The notes beneath the pieces are model-generated. The model made no database searches and was not told the origin of the DNA. It saw only the letters and a list, made by a program, of their open reading frames with translations. Below, piece after piece: positions 8,112 to 39,696 of a DNA stretch of 64,000 nucleotides. Source of the stretch: Candidatus Omnitrophota bacterium (GTDB lineage: Bacteria > Omnitrophota > Gorgyraeia > Duberdicusellales > 4484-171); the NCBI GenBank assembly GCA_021735655.1, contig JAIPGM010000003.1:32001-96000 (forward strand). The letters are read 5' to 3'. Each line of letters starts with the position of its first letter. Within the stretch, counting starts at the first letter, position 1. The position numbers were made by a program, and so were the translations under genes.

Positions 8112-8122
8112 GATGTAATTAA

Positions 8123-9262: not shown

Positions 9263-9263
9263 T

Positions 9264-13051: not shown

Positions 13052-13061
13052 TAGTGTTGTT

Positions 13062-23990: not shown

Positions 23991-24776
23991 ATGAAAGCAG
24001 TAATATTATGTGGAGGAAGAGGGACAAGAATTAGAGATGCCTCAGAAGTTTTACCTAAGTCAATGCTTCCGGTGGGCAATATGCCCTTGCTTTGGCATAT
24101 AATGAAAATTTACGCTCATTATGGGATAAAAGATTTCGTTTTATGCCTTGGTTATAAAGGGTGGGCGATAAAAGAGTTTTTTTTAAATTATCAAGCTAAG
24201 GTTTTTGATGTAGTGTTGAAGTTAGATAAAGAAAATTCAATAATTTATGGCCAAAACCATCATGAAAAGTTAGATTGGAAAATCTCGCTTGTAGAAACAG
24301 GCGAAGAATCACAAACCGGAGCAAGAATTTGGAATGCACGCAAATATTTAGAAGATTGTGATATGTTTTGTGTAACTTATGGTGACGGTGTTGGCAATAT
24401 CGACATCAAATCTTTAATAGAAGTTCATAAAAAATCGGGTTTACTTGGCACAATAACTGGAGTTCATCCTTCAGGCCGTTTTGGCGAAATAGAGACAAAA
24501 GGTAAGATTATTTCTTCTTTCGCAGAGAAGCCAAATGTAAGCTTTGGTTCTTATAATGGCGGGTTTATGGTTTTTGATAGAAAAGTTTTAGGAAAATATT
24601 TTAGATCTGGAAAAGATTTGATATTGGAGGCAGAAACTTTGCCTAATATGGTGAATGACAAGCAGTTAGGAATATATGAGCATAATGGTTTTTGGCAATG
24701 TGTTGACACTAATCGGGAATTAGAAATATTGGAGGGTTTATGGAATTCTTCTAATCCTCCTTGGAAAGTATGGTGA
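23991..24776 (+). CDS. rfbF: Glucose-1-phosphate cytidylyltransferase
   Basis: MKAVILCGGRGTRIRDASEVLPKSMLPVGNMPLLWHIMKIYAHYGIKDFVLCLGYKGWAIKEFF is highly similar to the RfbF/DdhA N-terminus (AVILAGGLGTRL...KPILWHIMKIYS). It is followed by a 4,6-dehydratase and the E1 dehydrase. Confidence 0.85.
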   Translation: MKAVILCGGRGTRIRDASEVLPKSMLPVGNMPLLWHIMKIYAHYGIKDFVLCLGYKGWAIKEFFLNYQAKVFDVVLKLDKENSIIYGQNHHEKLDWKISLVETGEESQTGARIWNARKYLEDCDMFCVTYGDGVGNIDIKSLIEVHKKSGLLGTITGVHPSGRFGEIETKGKIISSFAEKPNVSFGSYNGGFMVFDRKVLGKYFRSGKDLILEAETLPNMVNDKQLGIYEHNGFWQCVDTNRELEILEGLWNSSNPPWKVW

Positions 24777-25753
24777 ATACGCAAGTAAAATTTTGGAAAG
24801 GCAAAAGAGTCTTGATTACGGGCTATGAAGGATTCTTAGGATCTAATCTTGCTAAAGTTCTGCTAAACTTTGGTGCAAAGATATCGGGTTTGGATATTTT
24901 GACTAGAAGAAAAGATACAATCCTTACTCAAAAAGAATTAGCCAAGATAAAGATAATTAAAGGAAATGTTGATAATTTATCTTTAGTAAAGAGGATTTTA
25001 AGGAATGATAAAATAGAGGTTATTTTTCATCTCGCTGCAGAGGCTTTAGTTGGCGAGTGTCTAAAAAGACCAGTCAAAGGATTTTCGACCAATATTAAGG
25101 GAACTTGGAATATTTTAGAAGCTTGGCGGCAAACAAAAATAGCCAAAGCAATAGTTGTAGCTTCAAGCGATAAAGCCTACGGAAGTCATTCTAAGCTTCC
25201 TTATAAAGAAGATAGTGCGCTTTGCGGTTTGCATCCCTATGATGTTTCGAAGTCATGTGCTGACTTAATTGCTCATGCTTATCATAATACCTATGGAGCG
25301 CCGGTAGTGATAACTCGCTGTGGTAACATTTTTGGTCCGGGAGACTTCAATTTTTCCAGAATTGTTCCTGAAACCTTACGTTCGGTAATTAGAAATAAAA
25401 CTTTGGTTATTCGTAGTGATGGAAAGTTCACTCGTGATTATGTATATGTTGATGATATTGTAGCCGGATATATAAACTTAGCTCAAAAATCTAAAAAGTT
25501 AAAACTATTTGGCCAGGCTTTTAATTTTAGCGCCGAGCAGCCGCTTTCAGTTTTAGCTTTGGTAAAGTTGATTTATAAATTAGCTGACAGAAGATCTAAC
25601 TATAAAATCTTAAAACAGGCGAAATATGAAATTAAGCATCAATATCTTTCATCTAGGAAGGCTGCTAGAGTTCTTGGCTGGAAACCAAAGCTGAAGCTAG
25701 ATAAGGCTTTGGAGAAAACTTACCAGTGGTATAAAGATAATCTAAGCAAATGA
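24761..25753 (+). CDS. rfbG: CDP-glucose 4,6-dehydratase
   Basis: Extended SDR with VLITGYEGFLGSNL and YDVSKSCADL (YxxxK). Its position immediately after rfbF fits the assignment. Confidence 0.75.
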   Translation: MESMVNTQVKFWKGKRVLITGYEGFLGSNLAKVLLNFGAKISGLDILTRRKDTILTQKELAKIKIIKGNVDNLSLVKRILRNDKIEVIFHLAAEALVGECLKRPVKGFSTNIKGTWNILEAWRQTKIAKAIVVASSDKAYGSHSKLPYKEDSALCGLHPYDVSKSCADLIAHAYHNTYGAPVVITRCGNIFGPGDFNFSRIVPETLRSVIRNKTLVIRSDGKFTRDYVYVDDIVAGYINLAQKSKKLKLFGQAFNFSAEQPLSVLALVKLIYKLADRRSNYKILKQAKYEIKHQYLSSRKAARVLGWKPKLKLDKALEKTYQWYKDNLSK

Positions 25754-26490
25754 AGATAAATTTTTTAGGAACAAATGGATGGTACGATACTGATACCGGA
25801 AATACTCTTTGTATTCTTATTGAAACTAAAAAAGAATATATTATTCTCGATGCCGGAGGCGGTTTTTACAAAATTGGTCAATATATAAAGAAAAAGAAGC
25901 CAATTTATCTTTTCTTAAGCCATTTTCATCTCGACCACATTATTGGACTTCATACCTTATTGCTAGGTAACTTTTCTCAGGGGATTAAGCTTTACGGACC
26001 ACCGGGAGTAAAGAAATACTTATCACAAATAGTAAATTATCCTTATACAGCGCCAATTTCTAAGTTAAAAACAAAGGTTATCGTTAATCAAATTAAAAAA
26101 GAAGTACGTTTTCCTTTTAAGGTTGAGTTTGGCAAGCTGCTTCATCCTTCATTATGTTACGGCTATCGGTTTAATTTGGAAGGCAAAACAATTGTTTATT
26201 GCACCGATACCGGAATTTGCAGTAATTTATATAAGTTAGCTAGGGATTCTGATTTATTTATTACTGAATGCTCGGCGACTGCCGGAAAAAAGGAAAAGGA
26301 TTGGCCTCATTTAACGGCTCAGGATGCAGCTAAGGTTGCTAAGAAATCCCAAGTAAAAAAATTATTTTTAGTTCATTTTAATGCTTCCTTATTTAAAACT
26401 GAAAAGCAACGCAATATGGCTAAGGCACAAGCAAAAGAGATATTTGGGAATACTTTTGCGGCCAGTGACGGACAAGTAGTTAATTTATAA
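25750..26490 (+). CDS. MBL-fold metallo-hydrolase (RNase Z/PhnP-like fold)
   Basis: LSHFHLDHIIGL (HxHxDH) and downstream His/Asp ligands. Embedded in the CDP-sugar module. Confidence 0.6.
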   Translation: MKINFLGTNGWYDTDTGNTLCILIETKKEYIILDAGGGFYKIGQYIKKKKPIYLFLSHFHLDHIIGLHTLLLGNFSQGIKLYGPPGVKKYLSQIVNYPYTAPISKLKTKVIVNQIKKEVRFPFKVEFGKLLHPSLCYGYRFNLEGKTIVYCTDTGICSNLYKLARDSDLFITECSATAGKKEKDWPHLTAQDAAKVAKKSQVKKLFLVHFNASLFKTEKQRNMAKAQAKEIFGNTFAASDGQVVNL

Positions 26491-26501
26491 AGCTTTAAAT
26501 A

Positions 26502-27386
26502 ATGAAGAAAACACCCGTAGCTATAATTGGTACTGGAAATATTGGTACTGATCTTTTAATTAAGATCCAGCGTTCGTCAATTTTAGAATGTGTTCTTTTT
26601 ACTGGCCGGCGTCTAGATTCACGGGGCATGCAAAGAGCAAGGTTGCTTGGCGTACCCATTTCCGATCAATCAATAAAAGCCATTCAGAGAAATCATAATA
26701 TTTGCGATATAGTCTTTGACGCAACCTCAGCTAAAGCTCATCAATATCACGCACCAATTTTAAAGAAATTAGGTAAGATCGCTATAGACTTAACGCCTTC
26801 AAAAGTTGGCAAGATGTGTATACCGGTTATTAACATGAACCAATGTTTAGATGAAAATAATGTGAATTTGGTTACTTGCGGCGGTCAAGCAGCTATTCCA
26901 ATAGCTCATGCAATTATGAGGGTGCATCCGGAGACCGAATATATAGAAGTTGTAGCAAGTATTGCTTCTAAATCCGCGGGCCTTGGGACTAGAGATAATA
27001 TTGATGAGTTTACTCAGACTACCGGTGATGCTATTTTAAATTTTACCGGAGTTCCTCGGGCAAAGGCAATTATTATTTTAAATCCGGCTGAACCACCAGT
27101 TTTAATGCACAATACCATTTATGCCCAGATTACTAAGCCAAAGATCAAAAAAATGACTGCGGCAATAAATGATATTGTTAACAAGGTTCAAAAATATGTT
27201 CCTGGTTATAAAGTAACTGTGGGTCCAGTGGCCGAGGGCAATCGGGTAACGGTTATGATTGAGGTGGTGGGTTTGGGCGATTTTCTTCCTAAATATTCCG
27301 GCAACTTAGATATTATTACCTGCGCTGCTGTGAATATTGCGGAAAGTTTTGCTCAAAAAAAGATAAGAGGCAAAGTGCCTTTATGA
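26502..27386 (+). CDS. Acetaldehyde dehydrogenase (acylating), DmpF/MhpF family
   Basis: VAIIGTGNIGTDLLIKI, DIVFDATSAKAH and IDLTPSKVGKMCIPVINM with the catalytic Cys align closely with MhpF (VAIIGSGNIGTDLMIKI...DIVFDATSAGAH...IDLTPAAIGPYCVPVVN). Confidence 0.75.
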   Translation: MKKTPVAIIGTGNIGTDLLIKIQRSSILECVLFTGRRLDSRGMQRARLLGVPISDQSIKAIQRNHNICDIVFDATSAKAHQYHAPILKKLGKIAIDLTPSKVGKMCIPVINMNQCLDENNVNLVTCGGQAAIPIAHAIMRVHPETEYIEVVASIASKSAGLGTRDNIDEFTQTTGDAILNFTGVPRAKAIIILNPAEPPVLMHNTIYAQITKPKIKKMTAAINDIVNKVQKYVPGYKVTVGPVAEGNRVTVMIEVVGLGDFLPKYSGNLDIITCAAVNIAESFAQKKIRGKVPL

Positions 27387-28435
27387 AAAAAAGGAAAAAG
27401 ATTTTATTCTTTGATTCTACTTTGCGCGATGGGTCTCATGCAATTAGCCATCAGCTGAAAGCTTCCCAGATTAAGCAATATTGTAAGTATGCAGATGACT
27501 CAGGGTTACATACAATTATTGTCGGCCATGGAAATGGTCTAAGTGCCTCATCTTTGCAGGTAGGGTTGTCGGCTCTTTCTGATACAGAGATGATTGTAAC
27601 TGCTCGCAAGAATCTTAAAGCTACGAAATTGGGAGTTTTTTTGATTCCTGGTTTTGGTACAATTAAGGATGATCTTGCTCCGGCAATTGATCAAGGGGTT
27701 GATTTAGTTTGTGTTGCTTCTCATTGTACCGAGGCTAATGTTACTCGTCAACATATCGAATACGTAAGAAAACGAGGCAAAGCCGCTTATGGGGTTTTAA
27801 TGATGCAGCATATGGCTTCAGCCGAACGTTTATCCGAAGAAGCTCACAAAATGCAAGATTATGGCGCATTGGGTGTTATTTTAATGGATTCTGCCGGAGC
27901 TTCTCATCCGGAGATGGTTTCAGAGCGGGTTGGCCTACTAGTTAAGAATCTTGATTGTCAAGTTGGATTCCATGCTCATAATAATTTAGGTTTAGCGATT
28001 GCTAATTCATACAGTGCAATTAAAGCTGGGGCTACAATTATTGATGGAACAGTTAGGGGTTTTGGGGCTGGGGCCGGGAATTGTCAAATTGAAGTTTTAG
28101 CAGGATTGCTCTATAAAATTGGCGTAAAGACAGGTCTAGATTTATATAAATTGATGGATGTTGGTGATGAAGTAGTAACTAAATTGAGTGAGAAATCTCA
28201 AGGTGTGAGCTCAATTAGCCTAATTAGCGGAATAACTGGGGTTTTTTCGGGTTTTTCTAAACATGTTGAGAAAGCAGCTAAGCGATTTGGCGTTGATCCG
28301 CGAGATATTTTTATGGAGTTAGGAAAAAGAAAAATGGTAGCCGGGCAGGAAGATTATATTGTTGACGTGGCAATGTATTTAGCTCAGAAGAAAACTGGCC
28401 AGAAAGACAGCTATCAGATAGAATCACTTTCTTAA
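27383..28435 (+). CDS. 4-hydroxy-2-oxovalerate aldolase-like (DmpG/MhpE family, DRE-TIM metallolyase)
   Basis: DSTLRDGSHAISHQ (DxxLRDG), FHAHNNLGLAIANSYSAIKAGATIIDGTVRGFGAGAGN and ELGKRKMVAGQEDYIVDVA match the MhpE/DmpG catalytic and communication-domain motifs. Confidence 0.75.
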   Translation: MKKRKKILFFDSTLRDGSHAISHQLKASQIKQYCKYADDSGLHTIIVGHGNGLSASSLQVGLSALSDTEMIVTARKNLKATKLGVFLIPGFGTIKDDLAPAIDQGVDLVCVASHCTEANVTRQHIEYVRKRGKAAYGVLMMQHMASAERLSEEAHKMQDYGALGVILMDSAGASHPEMVSERVGLLVKNLDCQVGFHAHNNLGLAIANSYSAIKAGATIIDGTVRGFGAGAGNCQIEVLAGLLYKIGVKTGLDLYKLMDVGDEVVTKLSEKSQGVSSISLISGITGVFSGFSKHVEKAAKRFGVDPRDIFMELGKRKMVAGQEDYIVDVAMYLAQKKTGQKDSYQIESLS

Positions 28436-28448
28436 TAAGGAGTAGACA

Positions 28449-30230
28449 ATGAGAGTGGCCGATTACATTTTTAATTTTTTAGTCGATAAAGGCGTAAGAA
28501 ATGTTTTTATGGTTTCCGGCGGCCAAGCTATGTTTTTGGTTGATGCTGTTGGACGTCAAAAAGAAATAGAAGTTGTTTGTACACATCATGAACAGGCAGC
28601 TGGGATGGCAGCTGAAGCTTATGGGCGAGTAACTCAAAAATTAGGAGTAGCTTTAGTTACTGCCGGGCCGGGCAGTATGAATATTGTAAATGCGGTAGCC
28701 GGAGGCTGGACAGATTCATCACCAATGATGGTTATTTCCGGCCAATCATCTTTATCATATGTACAGTATCAAGAAGAAACTAATATTCGACAGTATGGAA
28801 TTCAAGGAATTTACATTAAGCCAATAGTTCAGAATATTACTAAGTATTTTGTTACTGTTGATGATCCAGCAAAAATTTTATTTTATCTTCAAAAAGCTTA
28901 TTATTATGCAACTACTGGGCGTCCTGGCCCGGTTTGGATCGATGTTCCGATTGATGTGCAAAAGATGGAGGTTCCCGATCGCTTATTAGAAGAGTTTGAA
29001 CCACCGCTTGAGGCTTATCTTCCCGATGAGCTAACAGATAGTGTTGAGCTGTTATTGACGACAATTTCCAAAGCTAAGCGGCCAATATTTTTAGTTGGCC
29101 AGGGTGTTCGCTTGGGCGGTGCGGTTGATCAGTTTTATCAAGTTCTTGAAAGATTAGCGATTCCGGTATTAACCTCGCGTCTGGGAATAGATTTAATTAA
29201 TAGTGATCATCGTCTTTATGTCGGTCGTCCAGGAATTTATGGTGAGCGAGCAGCTAACTTTGCAATTCAGAATGCTGATGTTATAGTGGCTGTTGGCTCG
29301 CGCTTAGCAACAGCATTAGTTGGCTATGATTCTAAAAACTTTGGTAAACAGGCTTATAAAATAGCTGTTGATATTGATAAAAAAGAGCTAAATAAGATCG
29401 GCGTTGAAATAAATTTGCGAATTCATGCTGATGTAAAAGATTTTTTTAAAGAAATCCAGCGGCAGCTAGTTTCGGTTTCAGTTGGCGATTTTAGTCAATG
29501 GATTAAACAATGTAATGATTGGAAAAAGAACTATCCGGTAGTTTTGCCGTCTTATGAGAAGGAGAAACCAGTCAATTCTTATTATTTTACTGAAAAGCTA
29601 TCTCAGGTTACACCTTCTGAGGTAATGGTTTTGGTTGATACTGGTTCTTGTTTTCATGTGGCTTGTCAGGCTTGGAAGATTAAAACCGGGCAACGTTTTC
29701 TTACTACTGGGGGTCTTTCTTCGATGGGTTATTGGGCTGCAGTTTTGGGGGTTTGCGAGGCCAACAATCGAAAGAATACGATTGTTATTACCGGTGATGG
29801 TAGCTTACAGATGAATTTACAGGAATTAGCAACAATTAAACATTACAATTTTCCGATTAAAGTTATTATTTTCAATAACAACGGTTATCTTTTAATAAGG
29901 CATACACAGAAGAACTACATGAATAGTCGTTTTTGCGGTGAAGGGCCGGATAGCGGTGTTTGGTGTCCGGATTCTTTAAGGATAGCCGAGGCCTATGGGA
30001 TTAAAGGTGTCCGCATAGATTCAGTTAAAGGGCTTAGTGAAAAAATTAAAGAAGTAATTGAATATCCCGGCCCGGTGGTTTGCGATGTAATGACTCCTGA
30101 GTGGCAATTACTTATTCCTCGAGTTTCTTCAGAAAAAAAGCCCGATGGAACATTGGTTTCAAAACCCTATGAAGATATGTACCCGTTTTTGAGTAAAAAA
30201 GAATTAAAACAAAACATGCTTTTTGAATAA
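28449..30230 (+). CDS. Thiamine-diphosphate-dependent enzyme of the acetolactate-synthase-large-subunit family (YerE-like candidate C-C branching enzyme)
   Basis: N-terminal Pyr domain (VFMVSGGQAMFLVDA...THHEQAAGMAAEAYGR). ThDP-binding GDG-X24-NN motif ITGDGSLQMNLQELATIKHYNFPIKVIIFNNNGY. Confidence 0.7.
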   Translation: MRVADYIFNFLVDKGVRNVFMVSGGQAMFLVDAVGRQKEIEVVCTHHEQAAGMAAEAYGRVTQKLGVALVTAGPGSMNIVNAVAGGWTDSSPMMVISGQSSLSYVQYQEETNIRQYGIQGIYIKPIVQNITKYFVTVDDPAKILFYLQKAYYYATTGRPGPVWIDVPIDVQKMEVPDRLLEEFEPPLEAYLPDELTDSVELLLTTISKAKRPIFLVGQGVRLGGAVDQFYQVLERLAIPVLTSRLGIDLINSDHRLYVGRPGIYGERAANFAIQNADVIVAVGSRLATALVGYDSKNFGKQAYKIAVDIDKKELNKIGVEINLRIHADVKDFFKEIQRQLVSVSVGDFSQWIKQCNDWKKNYPVVLPSYEKEKPVNSYYFTEKLSQVTPSEVMVLVDTGSCFHVACQAWKIKTGQRFLTTGGLSSMGYWAAVLGVCEANNRKNTIVITGDGSLQMNLQELATIKHYNFPIKVIIFNNNGYLLIRHTQKNYMNSRFCGEGPDSGVWCPDSLRIAEAYGIKGVRIDSVKGLSEKIKEVIEYPGPVVCDVMTPEWQLLIPRVSSEKKPDGTLVSKPYEDMYPFLSKKELKQNMLFE

Positions 30231-31188
30231 TAAAGGACAAATTTTGATTAAGAAAAAAAACGTACTAGTTACTGGTGCTCGTGGATTCATTGGAAAAAAT
30301 ATTGTTGAACATTTCAAAGCTAACCTTTCAAACAATTATACTGTTTTTTCTCCCTATCATAATGAGTTAGAACTGCTTGATTCTCAAGTGGTTATTTCGT
30401 TTATTAAGAGTAAATCAATAGATCTTATTATTCATTGTGCTAATATTGGGGGATCACGTAAAACTGCCTACGATCAAGATCGTACTGATGTGGTATATAA
30501 AAATTTAGCGATGTTTTTTAATCTAGTCGGTGCAATGAATAAAGACACTCGAATGGTATTTTTTGGTAGCGGCGCAGAGTATGCCAGAGCCTATTATAAG
30601 CCCAAGATGAAAGAAGATTATTTCGATGAACACATACCGGAAGATAGCTACGGTTTTTCAAAATACGTATGTTCTAAGTATATAGAAAGTTCTGAGAAAA
30701 TAGTAAATTTGCGTCTTTTCGGAGTTTTTGGAAAGCACGAAGATTATGAGTTTAAATTTATATCTAATGCTATTGTTAAAAATTTATTAGGTTTACCAAT
30801 CACCATAAATCAAAATATTTATTTTGATTATTTGTATATAAACGATTTTTTAAAGATAGTTGAGTATTTTATAGATAAAATGCCTAAACAAAAGTTTTAT
30901 AACGCTGCTAGAGGCCAAACAATTGACTTGGTAACGATAGCTAAAGAAATTAATAAAGTTTCCGAAAAGCAGTCGGAGATAATTGTTAAACATGAAGGTT
31001 TGAATACCGAGTATAGTGCCGATAATTCAAGACTTTTAAAAGAAATCGGTAATTTTGACTTTACTCCTTTTGACCAAGCAATAAAGGAGTTGTATCTTTG
31101 GTATAAATCTAATTTGAATAAAATTAATAAAGCCAAAATTACCAAAGATGAATATATTAAGTATTGTCACATAGATAGCCAACAGTAA
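30223..31188 (+). CDS. NAD(P)-dependent sugar epimerase/reductase (extended SDR; possible 4-ketoreductase of the branched dideoxy pathway)
   Basis: VLVTGARGFIGKNI Rossmann motif and YGFSKYVCSK (YxxxK). Confidence 0.65.
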   Translation: MNNKGQILIKKKNVLVTGARGFIGKNIVEHFKANLSNNYTVFSPYHNELELLDSQVVISFIKSKSIDLIIHCANIGGSRKTAYDQDRTDVVYKNLAMFFNLVGAMNKDTRMVFFGSGAEYARAYYKPKMKEDYFDEHIPEDSYGFSKYVCSKYIESSEKIVNLRLFGVFGKHEDYEFKFISNAIVKNLLGLPITINQNIYFDYLYINDFLKIVEYFIDKMPKQKFYNAARGQTIDLVTIAKEINKVSEKQSEIIVKHEGLNTEYSADNSRLLKEIGNFDFTPFDQAIKELYLWYKSNLNKINKAKITKDEYIKYCHIDSQQ

Positions 31189-32498
31189 TGAATAACCAGA
31201 AGTTATTGCGAAAACAAATCCTTAAAAAGGTGAAGGACTTTCAAGTCAAAAGTCCAAAGTCTAAATTTGTTCCCGGCGAAACTTATATTAACTATGCTGG
31301 GCGTATTTTTGACCATGAAGAACTCATCAATTCAGTTGATGCTTCTTTAGATTTTTGGTTAACTTCTGGACGATTCGCTTGTGAGTTTGAGAAGGAGTTA
31401 GCAAGATTTTTAGGAATTAAACATTGCATGTTAACAAATTCCGGTTCTTCGGCCAATCTTTTAGCTATTTCAGCGTTAAAGTCACCGTTATTAAAGAAAC
31501 GAAGTTTGAAGGCAGGCGATGAAGTTATTACCACTGCTTGCGGATTCCCGACAACTTTAAATCCAATTTTACAAAATAATCTTGTTCCGGTTTTTGTTGA
31601 TTTGGAGTTGGGTACCTATAATATTGATGTTACTAAAATAGAGCGAGCAATTTCTAAGAAAACAAAGGCTATTTTTGTTGCTCATACCTTAGGTAACCCG
31701 GTTGAACTAGATGCAATTATGAAAATAGTTAAAAAGCATAATTTATTTTTTATCGAAGATAATTGCGACAGTCTAGGTTCTAAATATAATGATAAATATA
31801 CCGGCAGTTTTGGTCAAATTTCAACTTGTAGTTTTTATGCCAGCCATCATATCACTATGGGAGAGGGCGGAGCGGTTTTAACCAATGACCCTTTACTTCG
31901 CAAGATAATTCTTTCTTTACGCGATTGGGGCCGTGATTGTTTTTGTGAACCAGGCCGGGATAATAGTTGTGGTAAGCGGTTTTCTAAAAAGCAGGGTAAG
32001 CTCCCCTTAGGGTATGATCACAAGTATATATATTCACATATTGGTTATAATTTAAAAATTACTGATATGCAGGCAGCAATTGGTTTAGCACAACTTAAGA
32101 AACTTAAGAACTTTATTTCTATTCGCAGAAAAAACTTTGACTATCTTTATAAAAATTTATCACAATATGATAAGTATATTGCTTTTCCTAAAGTTAGCAA
32201 TAAGTCTAAGGTTAGCTGGTTTGGATTTCCTGTTTTGATAAAATCTGATGCGCCTTTTAAGCGGATTGAGCTAGTAAGGTACCTAGAGAAAAATAAAATT
32301 GCTACTCGTATGTTATTCGGAGGAAATTTAACTAAGCAACCGGCTTATCAAGGCATAAAATATAGAGTTTCCGGAAGCTTAAATAATACTAACTTAGTTA
32401 TGGACAATCTTTTTTGGATTGGTGTGTACCCAGGCATCACCAAAGATAAGCTTGATTATATAGCAAAAATATTCTCATACTTTTTTAAGAAATTATGA
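31188..32498 (+). CDS. rfbH: CDP-6-deoxy-D-xylo-4-hexulose 3-dehydrase (E1; DdhC/RfbH)
   Basis: DegT-fold protein of 436 aa in which the PLP-lysine position reads SFYASHHITMGEGG. The replacement of Lys by His is the hallmark of E1 PMP-dependent dehydrases. The other three DegT paralogues in this window keep the Lys (SFNGNK, SFYANK, SFYPGK). A CFCEPGRDNSCGKRF cysteine cluster is consistent with the E1 [2Fe-2S] site. Confidence 0.8.
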   Translation: MNNQKLLRKQILKKVKDFQVKSPKSKFVPGETYINYAGRIFDHEELINSVDASLDFWLTSGRFACEFEKELARFLGIKHCMLTNSGSSANLLAISALKSPLLKKRSLKAGDEVITTACGFPTTLNPILQNNLVPVFVDLELGTYNIDVTKIERAISKKTKAIFVAHTLGNPVELDAIMKIVKKHNLFFIEDNCDSLGSKYNDKYTGSFGQISTCSFYASHHITMGEGGAVLTNDPLLRKIILSLRDWGRDCFCEPGRDNSCGKRFSKKQGKLPLGYDHKYIYSHIGYNLKITDMQAAIGLAQLKKLKNFISIRRKNFDYLYKNLSQYDKYIAFPKVSNKSKVSWFGFPVLIKSDAPFKRIELVRYLEKNKIATRMLFGGNLTKQPAYQGIKYRVSGSLNNTNLVMDNLFWIGVYPGITKDKLDYIAKIFSYFFKKL

Positions 32499-33199
32499 AG
32501 CTTTCGGTAATCATAACTTGCTTTAATGAGAAGGCTACTATCCTGGCAGCCATAGAGGAAGCCAGGCAGTTAGATATCGATAAAGAGATAATTGTTATTG
32601 ATAATTGCTCTAGTGATGGCACGAAACAGATTCTAGAAGGGTTAGGCGATAAAACTTTACAGATTGTATTTCAACCTAAGAATTTTGGTGTCGGGCAATC
32701 AGTTAAGCTTGGTGTTGAAATGGCAACCGGCGATTGTTGTTATAGCCCTTGCGCTGATTTAGAGTATAGGATGAATGATGTTTTTAAAATGATTAAAAAA
32801 ATGGAGCAAAATAATTTAGATGCTGTTTTTGGGTCGCGTATTGCTGATAGAAAGAATATTTCAAAATTAGTAATTATTAAAGAAAGACCATACTATGCCG
32901 CAACAATCGTGGCAACGTATCTTATCAATAAGTGGTATGGAAGAAATTTCACGGATATTATTGCTCCGAAGCTTATTAAAGCAGATATTTTTAAAAAACT
33001 AGCTATTAGTTCTAACGGCCAAGCTTTTGAGTTTGAGTTAGTCAGCAGGTTGTGTGAAGTTGGTTGTAGAATAGCTGAAGTGCCTATTTATTATAAGCCT
33101 CGGTCAGCAAAGCAAGGTAAAACTATTAAGCCTTGGGATTTTATTCCTGCTTTGTTAGCTATGATTAAAGTGAGGCTATCTAGAAAAAATAAATCATGA
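32495..33199 (+). CDS. Family 2 glycosyltransferase (DPM1-like)
   Basis: LSVIITCFNEKATILAAIEEARQLDIDKEIIVIDNCSSDGT. Confidence 0.75.
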   Translation: MKLSVIITCFNEKATILAAIEEARQLDIDKEIIVIDNCSSDGTKQILEGLGDKTLQIVFQPKNFGVGQSVKLGVEMATGDCCYSPCADLEYRMNDVFKMIKKMEQNNLDAVFGSRIADRKNISKLVIIKERPYYAATIVATYLINKWYGRNFTDIIAPKLIKADIFKKLAISSNGQAFEFELVSRLCEVGCRIAEVPIYYKPRSAKQGKTIKPWDFIPALLAMIKVRLSRKNKS

Positions 33200-34611
33200 T
33201 TCATTCTTCGAGAAAAATCTATCCTTTTTATATTTTAACTGATGTGTTTTTTATCGTTTTAAGTTTTTTTATACCTTACCTGTTAAAGTATGGCTCTTCG
33301 CAGATATCCTCTAGTTTAAATATTAAACTGCCGAATTTTGAAGAATATGTAGTGATATTTATACTTTGGGGTTTATTTATAATTATTACCTTAAATCGAA
33401 AAGGTTTCTACGCTACTGATCGCTCGCTGAGTATTCCTAAAGAAGCTTTCCGAGTATCAATAAATATTTTATATGTTAGTATTTTTGTGGCCGGATTGAT
33501 ATTTTTTACTAAGTATCAGTTTTTCTCTCGTGAAATATTCTTTAGCAACTTTGTTTTGCTTTGTGTCTTGTTATCTGGATGGAGAGCGCTTAAAAGATTA
33601 GTTTTACGAAAGTTAATATCTCAGGGATTCAAAAATGTAAATGTTTTAATTGTCGGCGCTGGAAAGATTGGTGAGAGTATTGCTGCAGAAATTTACAAAA
33701 ATCCTTATTGGGGATTTAAAATTTCAGGATTTCTTGATGATAGTAAAGTCAAGGCAGTTAGCGACTTACCGATTTTGGGAACCCTGAGTAACTTTATTTC
33801 TGTGGCCAAGAAGTACTTTATTGATGAAGTAATTATATCTATTCCTTCGGAAAGGAAAGCTGTTTCAGAACTAATCAAACAGGCCCAGAAGATGAACTTG
33901 GGTTTAAGAATCATTCCTGATAGTTTTGAAGAACCGCTTCCGGTGGTAGAGATAACTAATCTTGGGTTAATTCCTTTACTTACTTATAAAGAGAGGAAGC
34001 ACCATCCGGCAGAGTTTGCTTTAAAGCGGTTATTTGATATTTTAGTGTCTTTAATTTTGCTGATTTTATTGTTACCGGTTTTTTTAATAGTTTCAATATT
34101 AATAAAAATAGATTCAAAAGGTCCGGTTTTTTATATTCGTAAGCGCTCTGGTTTTAAAGGGAAAATATTTAGTTTTTATAAATTTCGCTCTATGGGTCAA
34201 GACGCCGATAAGCAAAAAGCCGATCTTTTGAGTAAAAATGAATCTAAAGGCAACCTTATTTTTAAGATGAAAAAAGATCCGCGAGTTACTTCGGTAGGTA
34301 AGTTTTTGCGCCGCTATAGCCTAGATGAATTACCTCAAATATTTAATGTTTTAAAGGGTGATATGAGTTTGGTTGGGCCGCGGCCTTTTCCGGTAGAAGA
34401 AAGCGATAAATTTCAGTATGAACATCTCCAGCGGTTGACGGTGCGCCCGGGAATAACCGGTTTAGCCCAGATTAGAGGCCGTTCAGACCTTTCGGTTTAC
34501 CGTTGGATTAAATGGGACCTTTGGTATGTGAACAACTGGTCTTTTCGGCTGGATTTTTTGATTCTTTGGTGGACAATTCCAGTAGTTTTAAAAGGAAGAG
34601 GAGCCTATTAA
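33196..34611 (+). CDS. Undecaprenyl-phosphate hexose-1-phosphate transferase (WbaP/CpsE bacterial sugar transferase family; initiating enzyme)
   Basis: N-terminal TM helices, a central Rossmann-like VLIVGAGKIGE, and the C-terminal catalytic domain KFRSMGQDAD...PRVTSVGKFLRRYSLDELPQIFNVLKGDMSLVGPRP. Confidence 0.8.
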   Translation: MIHSSRKIYPFYILTDVFFIVLSFFIPYLLKYGSSQISSSLNIKLPNFEEYVVIFILWGLFIIITLNRKGFYATDRSLSIPKEAFRVSINILYVSIFVAGLIFFTKYQFFSREIFFSNFVLLCVLLSGWRALKRLVLRKLISQGFKNVNVLIVGAGKIGESIAAEIYKNPYWGFKISGFLDDSKVKAVSDLPILGTLSNFISVAKKYFIDEVIISIPSERKAVSELIKQAQKMNLGLRIIPDSFEEPLPVVEITNLGLIPLLTYKERKHHPAEFALKRLFDILVSLILLILLLPVFLIVSILIKIDSKGPVFYIRKRSGFKGKIFSFYKFRSMGQDADKQKADLLSKNESKGNLIFKMKKDPRVTSVGKFLRRYSLDELPQIFNVLKGDMSLVGPRPFPVEESDKFQYEHLQRLTVRPGITGLAQIRGRSDLSVYRWIKWDLWYVNNWSFRLDFLILWWTIPVVLKGRGAY

Positions 34612-34693: not shown

Positions 34694-35140
34694 ATGCGTC
34701 AGGTGATGAATTTTGTTAAGGCTAATATTGGAGAATTTGGGTTTAGAACTTTAATAAGCTTAATTTTACTAGCTGTCGGATTAGTTTTTGTAGTTTTTGC
34801 AATAAAGAAAATACCGAGCTTAGGGAGAGGTTTTTTTCTTGTTGGACTAACAGCTGTTAGTTTATTATTAGTTTGGCAGATAGAGATAGCTGAGGAAAAA
34901 ATTCATTTATTTGAGTTTGCAGTTTTAGGTTGGCTAGCTTTTAAAGATACTTGGAGTAAAGATAAAAAATCTAAAGGAGTTATTTTAGCTTTAGTTTTTA
35001 CCTTTGCTGTGGGCGTTCTAGATGAAGGATTTCAGGCGGTACTACCCTATCGTTATTTTCAAGGCTGGGATATTTTTTTGAATTGTTTAGGGGGTCTTTG
35101 GGGGGTGCTGTCATTTTTAATTTTCAGAGGCGCAAGATGA
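34694..35140 (+). CDS. VanZ-like small membrane protein
   Basis: Four hydrophobic segments and a GVLDEGFQAVLPYRYFQGWDIFLNCLGGLWG pattern typical of VanZ. Confidence 0.5.
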   Translation: MRQVMNFVKANIGEFGFRTLISLILLAVGLVFVVFAIKKIPSLGRGFFLVGLTAVSLLLVWQIEIAEEKIHLFEFAVLGWLAFKDTWSKDKKSKGVILALVFTFAVGVLDEGFQAVLPYRYFQGWDIFLNCLGGLWGVLSFLIFRGAR

Positions 35141-35979
35141 GAAAGTCTCTATTTTTCTTTTTGTTCACATTTTTCGTTTTTTCTTTTTCTGTTTTCGCTG
35201 ATCAGCAATTAGAAATTCATTTTATTGATGTCGGAGAAGGTAATTCCATTTTTATCGAAACGCCCGGCGGCGAAGTAGTCTTAATTGATGCTGGAAATTT
35301 AATTAGTGGATTTAAGTTGTCGAAATATCTAAAAAAGAATAAAGTTGAAAAAATAGATCATCTTATCTTTACTCATCCTCATCTTGATCATATTGGCGGC
35401 AGTTTTTTCGTAACTCAAGAGTTTCAGATAGAGAATACTTATGATAGCGGAGAGGATTTATTGAATCTGGCTAAAGAGCAAGATGTCTATCGTTGGTATG
35501 CGGATTTAGTAAGAGAGGATAGCAGATATCGAGTTTTAACGGCTGGCGATGGACTTTTAACTGGTGAGGTAAGCTTTAAGGTGCTATGGCCTCGGGATCT
35601 ATCGCTAGGGTCTGATTTTAATATTAATTCTTTAGTGATTATGATAAAATATAAAGATTTTAGATGCCTTTTAATGGCTGATGCGACTATTGAGGCTGAG
35701 CGAGAACTTCTTAAAAGAGGAGAAGTTTTGGGAGCCGATATTCTAAAAGTTGGTCATCACGGTTTTCGTGATGCGTCTTCAGAGCAGTTTTTAGGGGCGG
35801 TATCAGCTGATGTGGCCATAATTAGTGTTAACAAGGATAATCTTCGCGGTTATCCTTCATTAGAGGTTTTAGAGCGCCTAAAAAAAGAAAAAGCCGTAAT
35901 TTATCGAACTGATAAAAGTGGAACTATAGTTATTGAAGTAAATTCTAAAGGGGAATTTTTAGTTAAGGAGGAGTTTTGA
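35137..35979 (+). CDS. Secreted MBL-fold hydrolase (ComEC C-terminal-like metallo-beta-lactamase domain)
   Basis: Signal-peptide-like N-terminus MRKSLFFFLFTFFVFSFSVFA. HFIDVGEGNSIFIETPGGEVVLIDAGN...HPHLDHIGG. The start is set at the ATG at 35137, which overlaps the VanZ stop as ATGA. Confidence 0.6.
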   Translation: MRKSLFFFLFTFFVFSFSVFADQQLEIHFIDVGEGNSIFIETPGGEVVLIDAGNLISGFKLSKYLKKNKVEKIDHLIFTHPHLDHIGGSFFVTQEFQIENTYDSGEDLLNLAKEQDVYRWYADLVREDSRYRVLTAGDGLLTGEVSFKVLWPRDLSLGSDFNINSLVIMIKYKDFRCLLMADATIEAERELLKRGEVLGADILKVGHHGFRDASSEQFLGAVSADVAIISVNKDNLRGYPSLEVLERLKKEKAVIYRTDKSGTIVIEVNSKGEFLVKEEF

Positions 35980-37239: not shown

Positions 37240-38598
37240 ATGTTTTTTAAACCGAGAAAGAAAAAAGCATTTGTTATTGGCCTAGATTGTGCTCCGCCGA
37301 GACTTCTCTTTGATAAATTTAAAGATGAGCTGCCTAATTTCAAGATGATGCTAGATAAAGGGGTTCATTGTCCTATGCGTTCAGTGCATCCGCCGATTAC
37401 AATTCCAGCCTGGATGAGCATGTGCTCTGGCTTGGATGTTGGCGAGATTGGCGTTTATGGGTTTAGAACCCGAAAAGATAATTCTTATACAGAATTTGAT
37501 ATCTCTACTTCTAAAAAGTTTTCTCAAATCGATAAGATTTGGGATATTTTAGCAAAATTAAAAAAGAAAAGTGTTCTTGTAGGTGTTCCTCCAAGTTACC
37601 CAACTTATCATATTGATGGAGGTATGATTTCGGGATTTATTTGTCCTGACGCAGCCAGTAATTTTACTTATCCTGAAAGCTTAAAGGGTGAAATTGAAGA
37701 GTTAGTTGGAGAATATAAACTTGATGTGGTGTTTAGAACCGAAGATCGAGATAAGCTAATAAAATCTGCCTGGGAGATGACCGAGAAGAGATTCAAGGTT
37801 ATTGAGTACTTAATAAAAAATAAACAGTGGGATTTTTTTATGTTCGTTGAGATTGGCGTAGACAGAATTCAGCATGCTTTTTGGAAATATTATGATCCGT
37901 CACACCATCTTTATCAACCTGAGCATAAGTATAAAAACGTCATTTTCGATTACTATAAATTTATTGATCAAAAAGTTGGAAAGATTCTTTCAGTTTTGGA
38001 TAAAGATACTACTGTTTTTACAGTATCCGATCACGGGGCAAAGTCAATGAAAGGAGTTTTTTGTCTTAATGAATGGCTTATTGATAAAGGTTATTTAGTG
38101 TTAAATAAATATCCTGATAAGATAGCCAGCTTCAATCAGCTAGATGTTGATTGGCAAAAAACTCGGGCCTGGGGTTGGGGAGGCCATTGTGGAAGGATTT
38201 TTATTAATAAAAAGAACCGCGAAACTCAAGGGTTAGTTAGAGATTCTGAATATGAGAGTTTGCGCGACGGTCTAATTAAGGAGTTAGAAAATGAAACCGA
38301 TCCTTTAGGTAAACCTTGGAATACGAAAGTTTATAAGCCTAAGGATGTCTATAAAGTGTTAAATGGAACCCCTTCGGACCTTGTGGCTTATTTTGATGAC
38401 TTAGCATATAGGGGTGCAGGTACCGTAGGGCATAAAAAGATTTTTCTAGAAGAAAACGATACTGGTCCTGACGATGCCGCACATGATTGGCAAGGTGTAT
38501 TTATTGAGTATAGTCCTTTAAGTAAAAGTGCAGAAGAATTAAACCAAATAAGCATCCTTGATTTCAAAGATAGAGTATTAAAGAGCATGGGAATATGA
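37240..38598 (+). CDS. Alkaline-phosphatase-superfamily enzyme, type I phosphodiesterase/nucleotide pyrophosphatase (NPP, PF01663-like)
   Basis: VIGLDCAPPRLL...VHPPITIPAWMSMCSGLDVGEIGVYGF is comparable to the NPP nucleophile region (PTxTFPNHYxxVTGLYPESHGI). A distal metal-site motif VSDHGA is also present. Confidence 0.55.
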   Translation: MFFKPRKKKAFVIGLDCAPPRLLFDKFKDELPNFKMMLDKGVHCPMRSVHPPITIPAWMSMCSGLDVGEIGVYGFRTRKDNSYTEFDISTSKKFSQIDKIWDILAKLKKKSVLVGVPPSYPTYHIDGGMISGFICPDAASNFTYPESLKGEIEELVGEYKLDVVFRTEDRDKLIKSAWEMTEKRFKVIEYLIKNKQWDFFMFVEIGVDRIQHAFWKYYDPSHHLYQPEHKYKNVIFDYYKFIDQKVGKILSVLDKDTTVFTVSDHGAKSMKGVFCLNEWLIDKGYLVLNKYPDKIASFNQLDVDWQKTRAWGWGGHCGRIFINKKNRETQGLVRDSEYESLRDGLIKELENETDPLGKPWNTKVYKPKDVYKVLNGTPSDLVAYFDDLAYRGAGTVGHKKIFLEENDTGPDDAAHDWQGVFIEYSPLSKSAEELNQISILDFKDRVLKSMGI

Positions 38599-39668: not shown

Positions 39669-39696
39669 TCTGAAGTTAATTTAATAATTTAAGCTA

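Follow-up and report, generated by a model that had tools for sequence, protein, structure and literature searches.

A probable erwiniose-type cassette for an acyl-branched deoxysugar in a glycan locus of Candidatus Omnitrophota

The erwiniose cluster of the plant pathogen Pectobacterium atrosepticum SCRI1043 encodes a ThDP enzyme (ErwE), a reductase (ErwF), a BphI-like aldolase (ErwI), and a BphJ-like dehydrogenase (ErwJ), together with the genes for CDP-4-keto-3,6-dideoxyglucose (Steitz et al. 2022, PMC9306805). ErwJ converts acetyl-CoA to acetaldehyde, which ErwI joins to pyruvate to give (R)-4-hydroxy-2-oxopentanoate; ErwE transfers a C4 acyl unit to CDP-4-keto-3,6-dideoxyglucose, and the reductase then completes the branch (PMC9306805). 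ErwE takes 4-hydroxy-2-oxopentanoate, rejects pyruvate, and yields (1R,4R) products (PMC9306805; PMC12247030); acetaldehyde is not used either (review, PMC12247030). The P. atrosepticum system was tested solely in vitro, with substrate analogues (PMC9306805). A sequence-only reading of the locus studied here had held that no sugar pathway with a DmpFG pair was described, a statement made outdated by the ErwE/F/I/J cluster (PMC9306805, reviewed in PMC12247030).

Here, we describe a block of eight genes in a Candidatus Omnitrophota MAG, analyzed within a 64 kb stretch of DNA (the window). By analogy with P. atrosepticum, the block is probably an erwiniose-type cassette for an acyl-branched deoxysugar. 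The cassette is a new member of a pathway type already described in 2022 in Pectobacterium and not a new kind of pathway, while the general conclusion drawn earlier, that a CDP-3,6-dideoxyhexose pathway is extended to a C-branched sugar, is upheld. The sequences themselves show which genes are present, that catalytic residues are conserved and synteny is strict, and that the aldolase has a residue signature; substrates, flux direction, stereochemistry, and final structure are assigned by analogy to P. atrosepticum.

Gene block and proposed CDP-sugar supply

The eight genes all lie on the + strand, and neighboring open reading frames overlap by 1–16 nt in most cases. The block sits within a one-strand glycan locus of about 56 kb, and its surroundings consist exclusively of glycan assembly genes. 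One of these, at 33196..34611 (+), encodes a polyprenyl glycosylphosphotransferase of the WbaP/WcaJ family (TIGR03025, 434 bits; cut-off 296) and marks the context as a surface-glycan assembly locus. Profile matches bore out the gene identities given in the sequence-only reading. Its gene counts needed correction: the interval between rfbG and rfbH holds five genes rather than four, and the block comprises eight rather than seven.

The first gene (23991..24776, +) encodes an RfbF/DdhA-like glucose-1-phosphate cytidylyltransferase with a Pfam NTP_transferase domain, matching TIGR02623 over its full length at slightly under the cut-off (292.8 bits vs 300.25). This enzyme would form CDP-glucose. 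It is followed by a short-form CDP-glucose 4,6-dehydratase-like SDR of 330 aa (24761..25753, +) in the rfbG/ddhB role. The best NCBIfam match of this SDR, TIGR02622, reaches 220 bits, under the cut-off of 278; among solved structures it best matches the CDP-glucose 4,6-dehydratases 1rkx and 1wvg, and in the alignment with 1rkx its SSDKaYG motif corresponds to tSDKcY and its PYdvSK motif to PYsnSK. Its product would be CDP-4-keto-6-deoxyglucose.

The third gene (25750..26490, +) encodes an accessory MBL-fold dinuclear metallohydrolase of the RNase Z-core/YhfI/PhnP type, with a match to Lactamase_B_2. Its invariant residues (alignment A2) are H58xH60xD62H63, H132, D153, and H209, and its AF2 model (pLDDT 86.6) has Foldseek matches to RNase Z (1y44), BA1088 (1zkp), YhfI (6kns), a PhnP-family diphosphatase (6b9v), and PhnP. 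In other loci, the gene comes after rfbF-rfbG, with dmpFG present or absent, and short-form RfbG proteins (324–330 aa, 56–66% identical) co-occur with it. The association of the MBL gene is with rfbF and short-form rfbG rather than with dmpFG, which contradicts its earlier assignment to a DmpFG insertion.

The last gene of the block (31188..32498, +) encodes RfbH/AscC (E1), a PMP- and [2Fe-2S]-dependent CDP-6-deoxy-4-hexulose 3-dehydrase (NF011936, 694 bits, cut-off 423) that is 53% identical to Yersinia E1 (3bcx) across its full length. It carries a His-His pair where the H220K mutant 3bb8 has a Lys, and keeps all four Fe-S cysteines (Cys193, 251, 253, and 261); judged from these residues, it is a true E1. 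An E3 (AscD/RfbI) reductase is absent from the 64 kb window, and none recurs in related loci, which leaves the encoded 3-deoxygenation step incomplete. With an electron donor encoded outside the window, E1 would remove the 3-hydroxyl to give CDP-4-keto-3,6-dideoxyglucose.

The dehydrogenase and aldolase pair

An ErwJ/BphJ/DmpF-like acylating acetaldehyde dehydrogenase is encoded at 26502..27386 (+) and scores 400 bits against TIGR03215 (cut-off 282). Its PDB matches include 7z3s (328 bits) and DmpF (1nvm_B, 229 bits), and it conserves the VTCGGQ motif, whose Cys is catalytic in DmpF. In parallel with the sugar steps, this enzyme is proposed to run from acetyl-CoA and NADH to acetaldehyde, the direction of its ErwJ counterpart, and the acetaldehyde would probably be handed on within a DmpFG-type complex.

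The partner gene (27383..28435, +) encodes an ErwI/BphI/DmpG-like class II pyruvate aldolase (TIGR03217, 384 bits, cut-off 286; DmpG_comm domain). It is 41% identical to DmpG and keeps all catalytic and metal residues (R17, D18, H21, H200, and H202 in DmpG numbering). The position of BphI Tyr290 is Phe in this aldolase and in 75/75 sugar-locus homologs; that of Leu87 is Phe or Tyr in 74 of the 75, and that of Leu89 is Ile in 69 and Leu in the remainder. The aldolase places in a non-Tyr290 clade, apart from the catabolic L87/Y290 clade. In BphI, Y290F loses 4S control, and the L87W/Y290F and L87N/Y290F variants are 4R-specific (PMC3962088); the Phe290 and aromatic-87 signature of the sugar loci resembles these engineered double mutants. 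The aldolase is predicted to join acetaldehyde and pyruvate into 4-hydroxy-2-oxopentanoate as the 4R enantiomer, a prediction based on mutant data for BphI, which is about 41% identical as judged from its ortholog DmpG.

The pocket residues also bear on the order of the steps. The ThDP enzyme could install an acetyl branch first, with the aldolase then extending that branch or adding pyruvate directly onto a sugar carbonyl. This is conceivable chemically, and Steitz and colleagues, who raised it explicitly as an alternative order, discounted it for ErwE because pyruvate is not taken as a donor (PMC9306805). Here, the small BphI pocket is kept (Ile/Leu at the Leu89 position) and fits acetaldehyde over a CDP-sugar, and retention of the DmpG communication domain for dehydrogenase partnering fits an acetaldehyde acceptor. 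We regard aldol addition after branching as very improbable.

The ThDP carboligase and proposed completion of the branch

The ThDP carboligase (28449..30230, +) has all three TPP domains and scores under every acetolactate-synthase (AHAS) equivalog cut-off (best 373 vs 538). Its closest solved structure is the YerE-like JanthE (8rph; 420 bits, 36% identity); PpYerE (5ahk) gives 254 bits at 29% identity and AHAS about 235 bits, and identity to housekeeping IlvB is merely 30–33%. By these comparisons, the enzyme is YerE-like rather than IlvB. A distinct set of residues is invariant within its clade. The YerE/YerF analogy proposed earlier stands.

For the synteny count, we used loci with a ThDP enzyme at least 56% identical to that of the window and at least 2.2 kb of upstream sequence (n = 76). 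The dmpF-dmpG pair lies directly upstream of the ThDP gene in every one, and homologs of rfbH (57/76), rfbG (57/76), and rfbF (55/76) occur nearby. ThDP relatives with 56–73% identity are spread over many phyla, and both Clostridium and candidate-phyla-radiation (CPR) bacteria share the gene order; carriers of the cassette include Clostridium gasigenes DSM 12272 and Lachnotalea glycerini DSM 28816 (loci L046 and L056). Recurrence at more than 80 independent loci puts the arrangement far from chance. This bears on the idea that a catabolic dmpFG operon or a housekeeping ilvB merely lies within the glycan locus or reads through it; the sole argument for that idea is the strong profile matches to MhpF/MhpE-type and acetolactate-synthase families. 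The genes of the 64 kb window include neither a hydratase, dioxygenase, or decarboxylase nor IlvN or IlvC; the earlier remark that no aromatic meta-cleavage context is visible agrees with this. Moreover, the genes overlap their sugar-pathway neighbors, synteny is kept in more than 76 glycan loci, and the aldolase and the ThDP enzyme stand apart from the catabolic clade and from IlvB, respectively. The tests that the sequence-only reading had itself suggested (gene context and the relation to IlvB, IlvN, and IlvC) effectively refute this idea, and we give it almost no credence.

In the erwiniose-type scheme, the ThDP enzyme would decarboxylate 4-hydroxy-2-oxopentanoate and attach the resulting acyl anion, a 3-hydroxybutanoyl unit, to C-4 of the CDP-4-ketosugar. 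Two other mechanisms had been suggested, with acetaldehyde passing to the ThDP enzyme or the aldolase acting on the sugar. Neither is best supported, because the pair of the published scheme supplies the ThDP enzyme with 4-hydroxy-2-oxopentanoate as its donor and ErwE rejects pyruvate and acetaldehyde. The same rejection weighs against a yersiniose-type C2 branch, made from pyruvate or DmpF-made acetaldehyde with the aldolase auxiliary (e.g., in acetaldehyde buffering). Such a branch would accord with YerE, which takes pyruvate and has the same acceptor, and with JanthE, the nearest solved relative, which takes pyruvate among many donors; MBL-type loci with a YerE-like ThDP enzyme and no dmpFG also occur (L087 and others). 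However, the dmpFG-free ThDP enzymes belong to a different clade (34–45% identical), whereas dmpF and dmpG accompany all 76 members of the window's clade, and intact aldolase catalytic residues with a conserved stereochemical signature would be unneeded for acetaldehyde supply alone. We consider a C2 branch unlikely. One point against the erwiniose-type reading comes from L168, another sugar locus with a dmpFG pair: its ThDP enzyme shares only 28% identity with that of the window, so dmpFG pairs serve at least two distant YerE-like clades, whose donor specificity may differ.

The SDR reductase in the YerF/ErwF position (30223..31188, +; Pfam Epimerase) carries the motifs GARGFIG and Y143GFSK. 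In most related loci, the ThDP gene is directly followed by an SDR of one of several subfamilies. The window's SDR is proposed to reduce the C-1' carbonyl of the branch; the resulting CDP-3,6-dideoxyhexose would bear a 1,3-dihydroxybutyl branch and be erwiniose or one of its stereoisomers. A different building block, either another acyl-CoA (e.g., propionyl-CoA) or the 4S acid, would lead to a longer-branched or epimeric sugar. BphI/BphJ-type enzymes take several short aldehydes (PMC3962088), the C6 homologue is also accepted by ErwE (PMC9306805), the ThDP clade is likened to ErwE by enzyme set and not by sequence identity, and the SDR subfamily varies between loci. However, the dehydrogenase clears the equivalog cut-off for acetaldehyde dehydrogenase by a wide margin, the bulk of the residue at the Leu89 position speaks against long aldehydes, and the Phe290 and aromatic-87 signature favors 4R; a different building block is unlikely in our estimate.

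Transfer of the erwiniose-type sugar to the surface glycan would fall to the downstream GT2 (32495..33199, +; Pfam Glycos_transf_2), of the polyprenyl-phosphate glycosyltransferase type (ArnC/PpgS/AglJ-like). Its top NCBIfam matches, AglJ and PpgS, are each well under cut-off, and its start overlaps the stop codon of rfbH. Homologs (43–61% identity) occur in nine loci (L013, L022, L029, L033, L085, L086, L093, L095, and L109), coming after rfbH or, on contigs without rfbH, after the ThDP gene. From this placement, the GT2 is likely the transferase for the branched sugar.

Comparison with known systems

With DmpFG, BphIJ, MhpEF, and HsaFG of aromatic and steroid meta-cleavage, the window pair shares fold, metal and catalytic residues, communication domain, adjacent genes, and the dehydrogenase VTCGGQ motif. 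It differs from them in its proposed synthetic direction, its place in a glycan locus without upstream meta-cleavage genes, and an aldolase of a separate clade with Tyr290 replaced by Phe and Leu87 by Phe/Tyr. JanthE (Janthinobacterium sp. HH01; 8rph, 8rpi, and 8rpj), the closest solved structure to the ThDP enzyme, takes 4-hydroxy-2-oxovalerate among its donors, but is promiscuous, and its ThDP motif reads CDG in place of GDG.

The caryophyllose and gastriose clusters of mycobacteria and the C6-branched sugar cluster of Rhodopseudomonas palustris have their scheme in common with the window cassette. They differ in their longer branches and other aldolase type (the M. marinum enzyme is described as a member of the aldolase/citrate-lyase family), and a DmpF-like dehydrogenase is not reported for them. 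Yersiniose A of Yersinia pseudotuberculosis (YerE/YerF) shares the acceptor sugar, the supply genes ddhA, ddhB, and ddhC, and a YerE-like-class ThDP carboligase followed by a reductase. Yersinia encodes an E3 (ddhD). In yersiniose A, however, YerE makes a C2 branch from pyruvate, and neither an aldolase nor a dehydrogenase is reported in the scheme (PMC9306805).

The erwiniose cluster differs from the window block in host and probably in gene order, which is J-I-E-F in the Omnitrophota MAG, while the Erw accession numbers suggest E-F-J-I, as in L168; the window block also has the extra MBL gene and no E3 gene. The likeness is one of enzyme set and inferred logic, with the Erw proteins compared by description and not by sequence. 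It comprises a CDP-3,6-dideoxy-4-ketohexose acceptor, a donor-building aldolase/dehydrogenase pair, a YerE-like carboligase, an adjacent reductase, and a nearby glycosyltransferase.

Gene content and setting of the cassette

Eight co-directional reading frames, most of them overlapping their neighbours by 1-16 nt, occupy positions 23991-32498 on the forward strand. Pfam and NCBIfam profiles upheld the gene assignments of the sequence-only reading for this block; the number of genes between rfbG and rfbH is five, not four as had been counted there. The first gene encodes a glucose-1-phosphate cytidylyltransferase (rfbF, 23991-24776; 292.8 bits with TIGR02623, just short of the cut-off of 300.25). 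It is followed by a short-chain dehydrogenase/reductase (SDR) whose top match is CDP-glucose 4,6-dehydratase (rfbG, 24761-25753; 220 bits, under the cut-off) and by a metallo-beta-lactamase-fold (MBL) protein recognized by Pfam and NCBIfam profiles (25750-26490). The next two genes score over their cut-offs, as an acylating acetaldehyde dehydrogenase (dmpF-like, 26502-27386; TIGR03215, 400 bits) and a 4-hydroxy-2-oxovalerate aldolase with a DmpG communication domain (dmpG-like, 27383-28435; TIGR03217, 384 bits; DmpG_comm, 94.7 bits). A three-domain ThDP enzyme (28449-30230) falls under every acetolactate-synthase equivalog cut-off, and its stop codon is overlapped by a second SDR gene (30223-31188), whose product carries GxxGxxG and YxxxK motifs. 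The last gene is rfbH (31188-32498; 694 bits). The three genes for the supply of CDP-4-keto-3,6-dideoxyglucose (cytidylyltransferase, 4,6-dehydratase, and the E1 dehydrase) are therefore all in the cassette and co-directional, the first two slightly to moderately under the NCBIfam cut-offs. Promoter and terminator scans gave signals no richer than in shuffled sequence, so the operon structure rests on the overlapping reading frames.

Immediately 3' of rfbH lie a GT2 glycosyltransferase of the polyprenyl-phosphate type and a WbaP/WcaJ-type phosphoglycosyltransferase. Every sizeable reading frame in 263-56938 of the window is on the forward strand, and those with Pfam matches have sugar-nucleotide or glycan-assembly functions, including glycosyltransferases, WecG, a Wzy_C/O-antigen ligase domain, and GT9 heptosyltransferases, together with DegT aminotransferases, radical SAM enzymes, and ATP sulfurylase. 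The housekeeping genes for XseA, PNPase, FtsK, and RodZ come after this block. The locus also holds some less usual genes. At 7449-10025, a CTP_transf_3 cytidylyltransferase, a 3-dehydroquinate-synthase-like protein, and an adh_short reductase adjoin, with a reading frame that has no Pfam match on their 5' side (6394-7434); the trio may represent a route to an unusual CMP-activated sugar or a carbocyclic sugar. Elsewhere there are a HisF/HisH-like pair (263-1848), a SPASM radical SAM protein (13062-14018), a B12-binding radical SAM protein (44957-46396), ATP sulfurylase (52800-53903), two proteins of the type I phosphodiesterase/nucleotide pyrophosphatase family (37240-41565), and a second MBL gene (35083-35979). 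These contents suggest a heavily modified, possibly sulfated, surface glycan.

A DmpFG-like pair could also belong to a catabolic operon that reads through the locus, and an acetolactate-synthase-family enzyme could be a housekeeping IlvB with IlvN and IlvC partners; the sequence-only reading had named both as findings that would count against a sugar pathway. Profile scans of the reading frames found no hydratase, hydrolase, or dioxygenase in the 64 kb window, and neither IlvN nor IlvC is present there, so both came out negative. Aromatic meta-cleavage surroundings are likewise absent from the window, the conserved neighbours in related loci are sugar-pathway genes, and we exclude catabolic read-through. 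The ThDP enzyme stands apart from IlvB, reaching 373 bits with TIGR00118 against a cut-off of 538 and sharing 30-33% identity with the products of annotated ilvB genes on plasmids. Plasmids yielded only such ilvB-like relatives, at no more than 33% identity, and E. coli genomes contain no similar DNA.

A ThDP carboligase clade linked to an aldolase/dehydrogenase pair

It had been stated from the sequence that no described sugar pathway uses a DmpFG pair. This is outdated, as the erwiniose cluster was published in 2022 (PMC9306805). In P. atrosepticum SCRI1043, Steitz et al. 2022 identified the genes for ErwE (a ThDP enzyme), ErwF (a reductase), ErwI (a BphI-like aldolase), and ErwJ (a BphJ-like dehydrogenase), along with those for CDP-4-keto-3,6-dideoxyglucose supply (PMC9306805). 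They proposed that ErwJ converts acetyl-CoA to acetaldehyde, which ErwI joins with pyruvate to give (R)-4-hydroxy-2-oxopentanoate, the donor for ErwE (PMC9306805). Pyruvate did not serve as a donor for ErwE, whose products with model acceptors were (1R,4R) (PMC9306805). A 2025 review repeats the scheme and refers to a survey, done in silico, of over 200 YerE-like clusters (PMC12247030).

A scan of GTDB with one genome per species returned 101 relatives of the window's ThDP enzyme, and 80 loci were fetched; neighbours were counted by BLASTP of the window proteins against all reading frames of these and later loci. Relatives with 56-73% identity occur in many phyla, and many metagenomic homologs are 65-73% identical. 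In every locus with a ThDP enzyme of 56% identity or more and an upstream stretch of 2.2 kb or longer, dmpF and dmpG lay directly upstream on the same strand (76 of 76 loci). Homologs of rfbH, rfbG, and rfbF were nearby in 57, 57, and 55 of those 76 loci. The search for the same arrangement elsewhere, proposed with the sequence-only reading, found rfbF-rfbG-dmpF-dmpG-ThDP-SDR-rfbH unchanged in a Clostridium MAG; a Magasanikbacteria MAG keeps the order from rfbF to the SDR gene, with no adjacent rfbH. In all, about 100 species-level genomes carry the cassette, among them members of the Omnitrophota, Elusimicrobiota, Clostridia, and Gammaproteobacteria and candidate-phyla-radiation (CPR) bacteria; Clostridium gasigenes DSM 12272 (L046) and Lachnotalea glycerini DSM 28816 (L056) are carriers in culture. 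YerE-like enzymes of 34-45% identity in other loci are without dmpFG, which makes the linkage specific to the window's ThDP clade. This clade also has invariant residues of its own, missing from unlinked YerE-like enzymes. A more distant aldolase, P0244, with 48% identity, comes from a sugar locus of the order ThDP-reductase-dmpF-dmpG, in which the ThDP enzyme shares only 28% identity with that of the window; pairs of the dmpFG type have thus been recruited by at least two YerE-like clades.

Some related loci carry additional carboligase-like genes. Five of them, from CPR bacteria, Gammaproteobacteria, and unclassified MAGs (L019, L021, L024, L035, L073), hold two YerE-like ThDP genes, one linked to dmpFG and a second that is 39-44% identical, which hints that a single locus serves two distinct branched sugars or two branching steps. 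In about eight loci, split transketolase genes encoding N-terminal and pyrimidine/C-terminal halves adjoin the cassette (e.g., L070:6142-7092, L084:3789-4616) and may constitute a second, transketolase-type C2 branching system.

The nearest solved structure to the window's ThDP enzyme is JanthE (8rph; 420 bits, 36% identity), a YerE-like enzyme that accepts 4-hydroxy-2-oxovalerate. The score falls to 254 bits for PpYerE (5ahk) and to about 235 for plant and yeast AHAS. The best explanation of the cassette is, in our analysis, probably an erwiniose-type route, its steps and substrates being proposed by analogy. From the strict dmpFG linkage we infer a ThDP enzyme that would take 4-hydroxy-2-oxopentanoate and refuse pyruvate, with erwiniose as the predicted product. 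Two other mechanisms had been offered in the sequence-only reading, and both are disfavoured. One is a yersiniose-type route, in which pyruvate, or acetaldehyde delivered by the pair, is the donor for the ThDP enzyme; the absolute linkage of this ThDP clade to both dmpF and dmpG and the data on ErwE speak against it. The other has the aldolase acting on the sugar itself, against which stand its small, conserved aldehyde pocket and the presence of the communication domain. An otherwise similar route that starts from another acyl-CoA, or follows another stereochemistry, we regard as improbable.

The aldolase offers a view of the stereochemistry that an erwiniose-type route might have. It is 41% identical to DmpG (1nvm), with R15, D16, H19, H197, and H199 aligned to DmpG R17, D18, H21, H200, and H202. 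It thus shares with the catabolic enzymes DmpG and BphI the catalytic Arg, His, and Asp, the two metal-binding His, and the communication domain, but has Phe288 where BphI has Tyr290 and Phe86 where BphI has Leu87. Of 75 aldolase homologs from sugar loci, all have Phe at position 290 (BphI numbering), and 74 have Phe or Tyr at position 87. In BphI, Tyr290 and Leu87 enforce 4S stereochemistry (PMC3962088). According to the work of Baker and Seah summarized there, wild-type BphI is strictly 4S-specific and the Y290F variant loses stereocontrol (PMC3962088), while L87W/Y290F and L87N/Y290F are 4R-specific (PMC3962088). Given these mutants, Phe290 with an aromatic residue at 87 makes the natural sugar-locus aldolases resemble the engineered 4R variants, and this predicted 4R-like signature matches the (R)-acid selected by ErwE. 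A search against 1.84 billion representative proteins showed mostly Phe290 with His, Phe, or Tyr at 87 in the clusters nearest the window aldolase, and L87/Y290 in the catabolic type; the two types separate in a neighbour-joining tree built without support values. We propose Phe290 with an aromatic residue or His at 87 as a rule for branch stereochemistry. Of interest to biocatalysis are two enzyme groups to which the cassette points, class II pyruvate aldolases that would be naturally 4R-selective and a large reservoir of YerE-like carboligases. The partner dehydrogenase keeps the VTCGGQ motif, which holds the catalytic cysteine in DmpF.

Two other groups of DmpG-like proteins were noticed. 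A large DmpG-family clade (P0285-P0389) accounts for about half of the 150 best representatives in the aldolase search, and 74 of its members have exactly the signature Phe87, His290, and Tyr replacing catalytic His21. Most members are 650-700 aa long and hence probably fusion proteins; the clade may have a different, uncharacterised activity. Separately, a dmpF-dmpG pair with His87/Phe290 occurs outside any sugar locus (L170:2919-5704 and 12385-13704; L171). A gene for a Mem_trans transporter adjoins this pair, and three small reading frames of 51-57 aa precede it in tandem. The small-frame set and the start of another dmpF recur about 9 kb downstream on the same contig.

Deoxygenation genes and the MBL protein

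RfbH of the window aligns with Yersinia E1 (3bcx) from end to end at 53% identity. His takes the place of the PLP-binding Lys, giving His-His in contrast to the Lys-His of the H220K mutant 3bb8, and Cys residues stand at 193, 251, 253, and 261, the [2Fe-2S] ligand positions of E1, so we regard it as a genuine Fe-S- and PMP-dependent E1. The E3 reductase (AscD/RfbI/DdhD; a ferredoxin-NADP-reductase-like protein with a 2Fe-2S domain) was found neither in the window reading frames scanned nor among the recurrent neighbour families of related loci. The reductant for E1 must consequently come from elsewhere, plausibly from a general ferredoxin or flavodoxin reductase system. The RfbG-like SDR (24761-25753) shares its S-D-K and YxxxK motifs with CDP-glucose 4,6-dehydratases. 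It is a short, divergent form (324-330 aa) with only 144 bits to 1rkx, and homologs of it occur in L005, L006, L008, L009, L022, L029, L033, L039, and L041; most other cassette loci have a canonical 4,6-dehydratase of about 360 aa that is 28-37% identical to the window protein.

The MBL protein has a complete dinuclear HxHxDH site. Its confident model (pLDDT 86.6) resembles the core of RNase Z, YhfI and BA1088, both of which lack the arm, and members of the PhnP family. The protein does not fit tRNase Z in other respects, as it has 246 aa, compared with about 300-320 aa for enzymes with the flexible-arm exosite, and RNase Z profiles cover it in two disjoint segments, with 133-136 bits where the cut-offs are 252-293. 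Three MBL-centred look-ups and a metagenome scan placed the sugar-locus homologs (49-62% identical) directly 3' of short-form rfbG, or of rfbF where rfbG sits elsewhere. The genes on their 3' side vary, and can be dmpF-dmpG-ThDP, a different YerE-like ThDP gene without dmpFG, or only an SDR gene and rfbH. This variation assigns the MBL gene to the CDP-ketosugar part of the cassette rather than to the DmpFG part. The gene recurs in loci of Omnitrophota/Elusimicrobiota type (L085-L087, L090, L092-L095, L098, L103-L110, L113-L121, L146, L152, L162, L164), none of which encodes E3. In the metagenome scan, sugar genes were missing around the MBL gene in 43 of the 80 loci, where the homologs are 47-61% identical; short contigs are frequent among the 43, but loci with full 8 kb flanks are included too. 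A search among the non-sugar homologs (47-57% identity) for conserved neighbours that might indicate an ancestral function found none.

The MBL protein could serve in salvage or editing of a CDP-sugar or sugar-phosphate intermediate, or could assist E1 where a locus has no E3. As an outright substitute for E3 it is a weak candidate, with a hydrolase-type HxHxDH site and three loci (L110, L116, L121) that have no rfbH within their flanks. A lactonase acting on the lactone of 4-hydroxy-2-oxopentanoate is weakened as a candidate by the loci that have the MBL gene without dmpFG. A more speculative reading would make this phosphodiesterase-like protein an unrecognised functional partner in CDP-deoxyhexose biosynthesis of Omnitrophota, Elusimicrobiota, and relatives and, separately, have the ThDP clade with its naturally 4R-type aldolase make a branched sugar other than erwiniose; we consider this reading unlikely. 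Two gaps stand out in the CDP-3,6-dideoxyhexose biosynthesis of these organisms, namely the lack of an E3 reductase and the recurrence of the MBL protein.

Comparison with the erwiniose cluster

No Pectobacterium locus was among the 80 fetched of the 101 GTDB relatives, and none was among the named ThDP matches. A search seeded with the ThDP enzyme of L168, a sugar locus with the Erw-like order E-F-J-I, gave no named Pectobacterium match either. The likeness to the erwiniose cluster described here is one of enzyme set. Three results find no mention in the papers cited, namely an aldolase signature that is family-wide and rationalizes 4R chemistry, a linkage of dmpFG to the ThDP gene that is both broad and strict, and the association of an MBL gene with rfbF and short-form rfbG. 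Borrowing a catabolic aldolase/dehydrogenase pair to make the donor for a ThDP enzyme, as in erwiniose biosynthesis, is not confined to Pectobacterium. The window cassette and the erwiniose cluster have in common a BphI-like aldolase and a BphJ-like dehydrogenase adjoining the ThDP gene and, after the gene for the YerE-like ThDP carboligase, one for an NAD(P)H reductase, here an SDR. They differ in phylum and gene order, and the window cassette has an extra MBL gene and no E3. The cassette is a further member of the pathway type published in 2022, with variant features.
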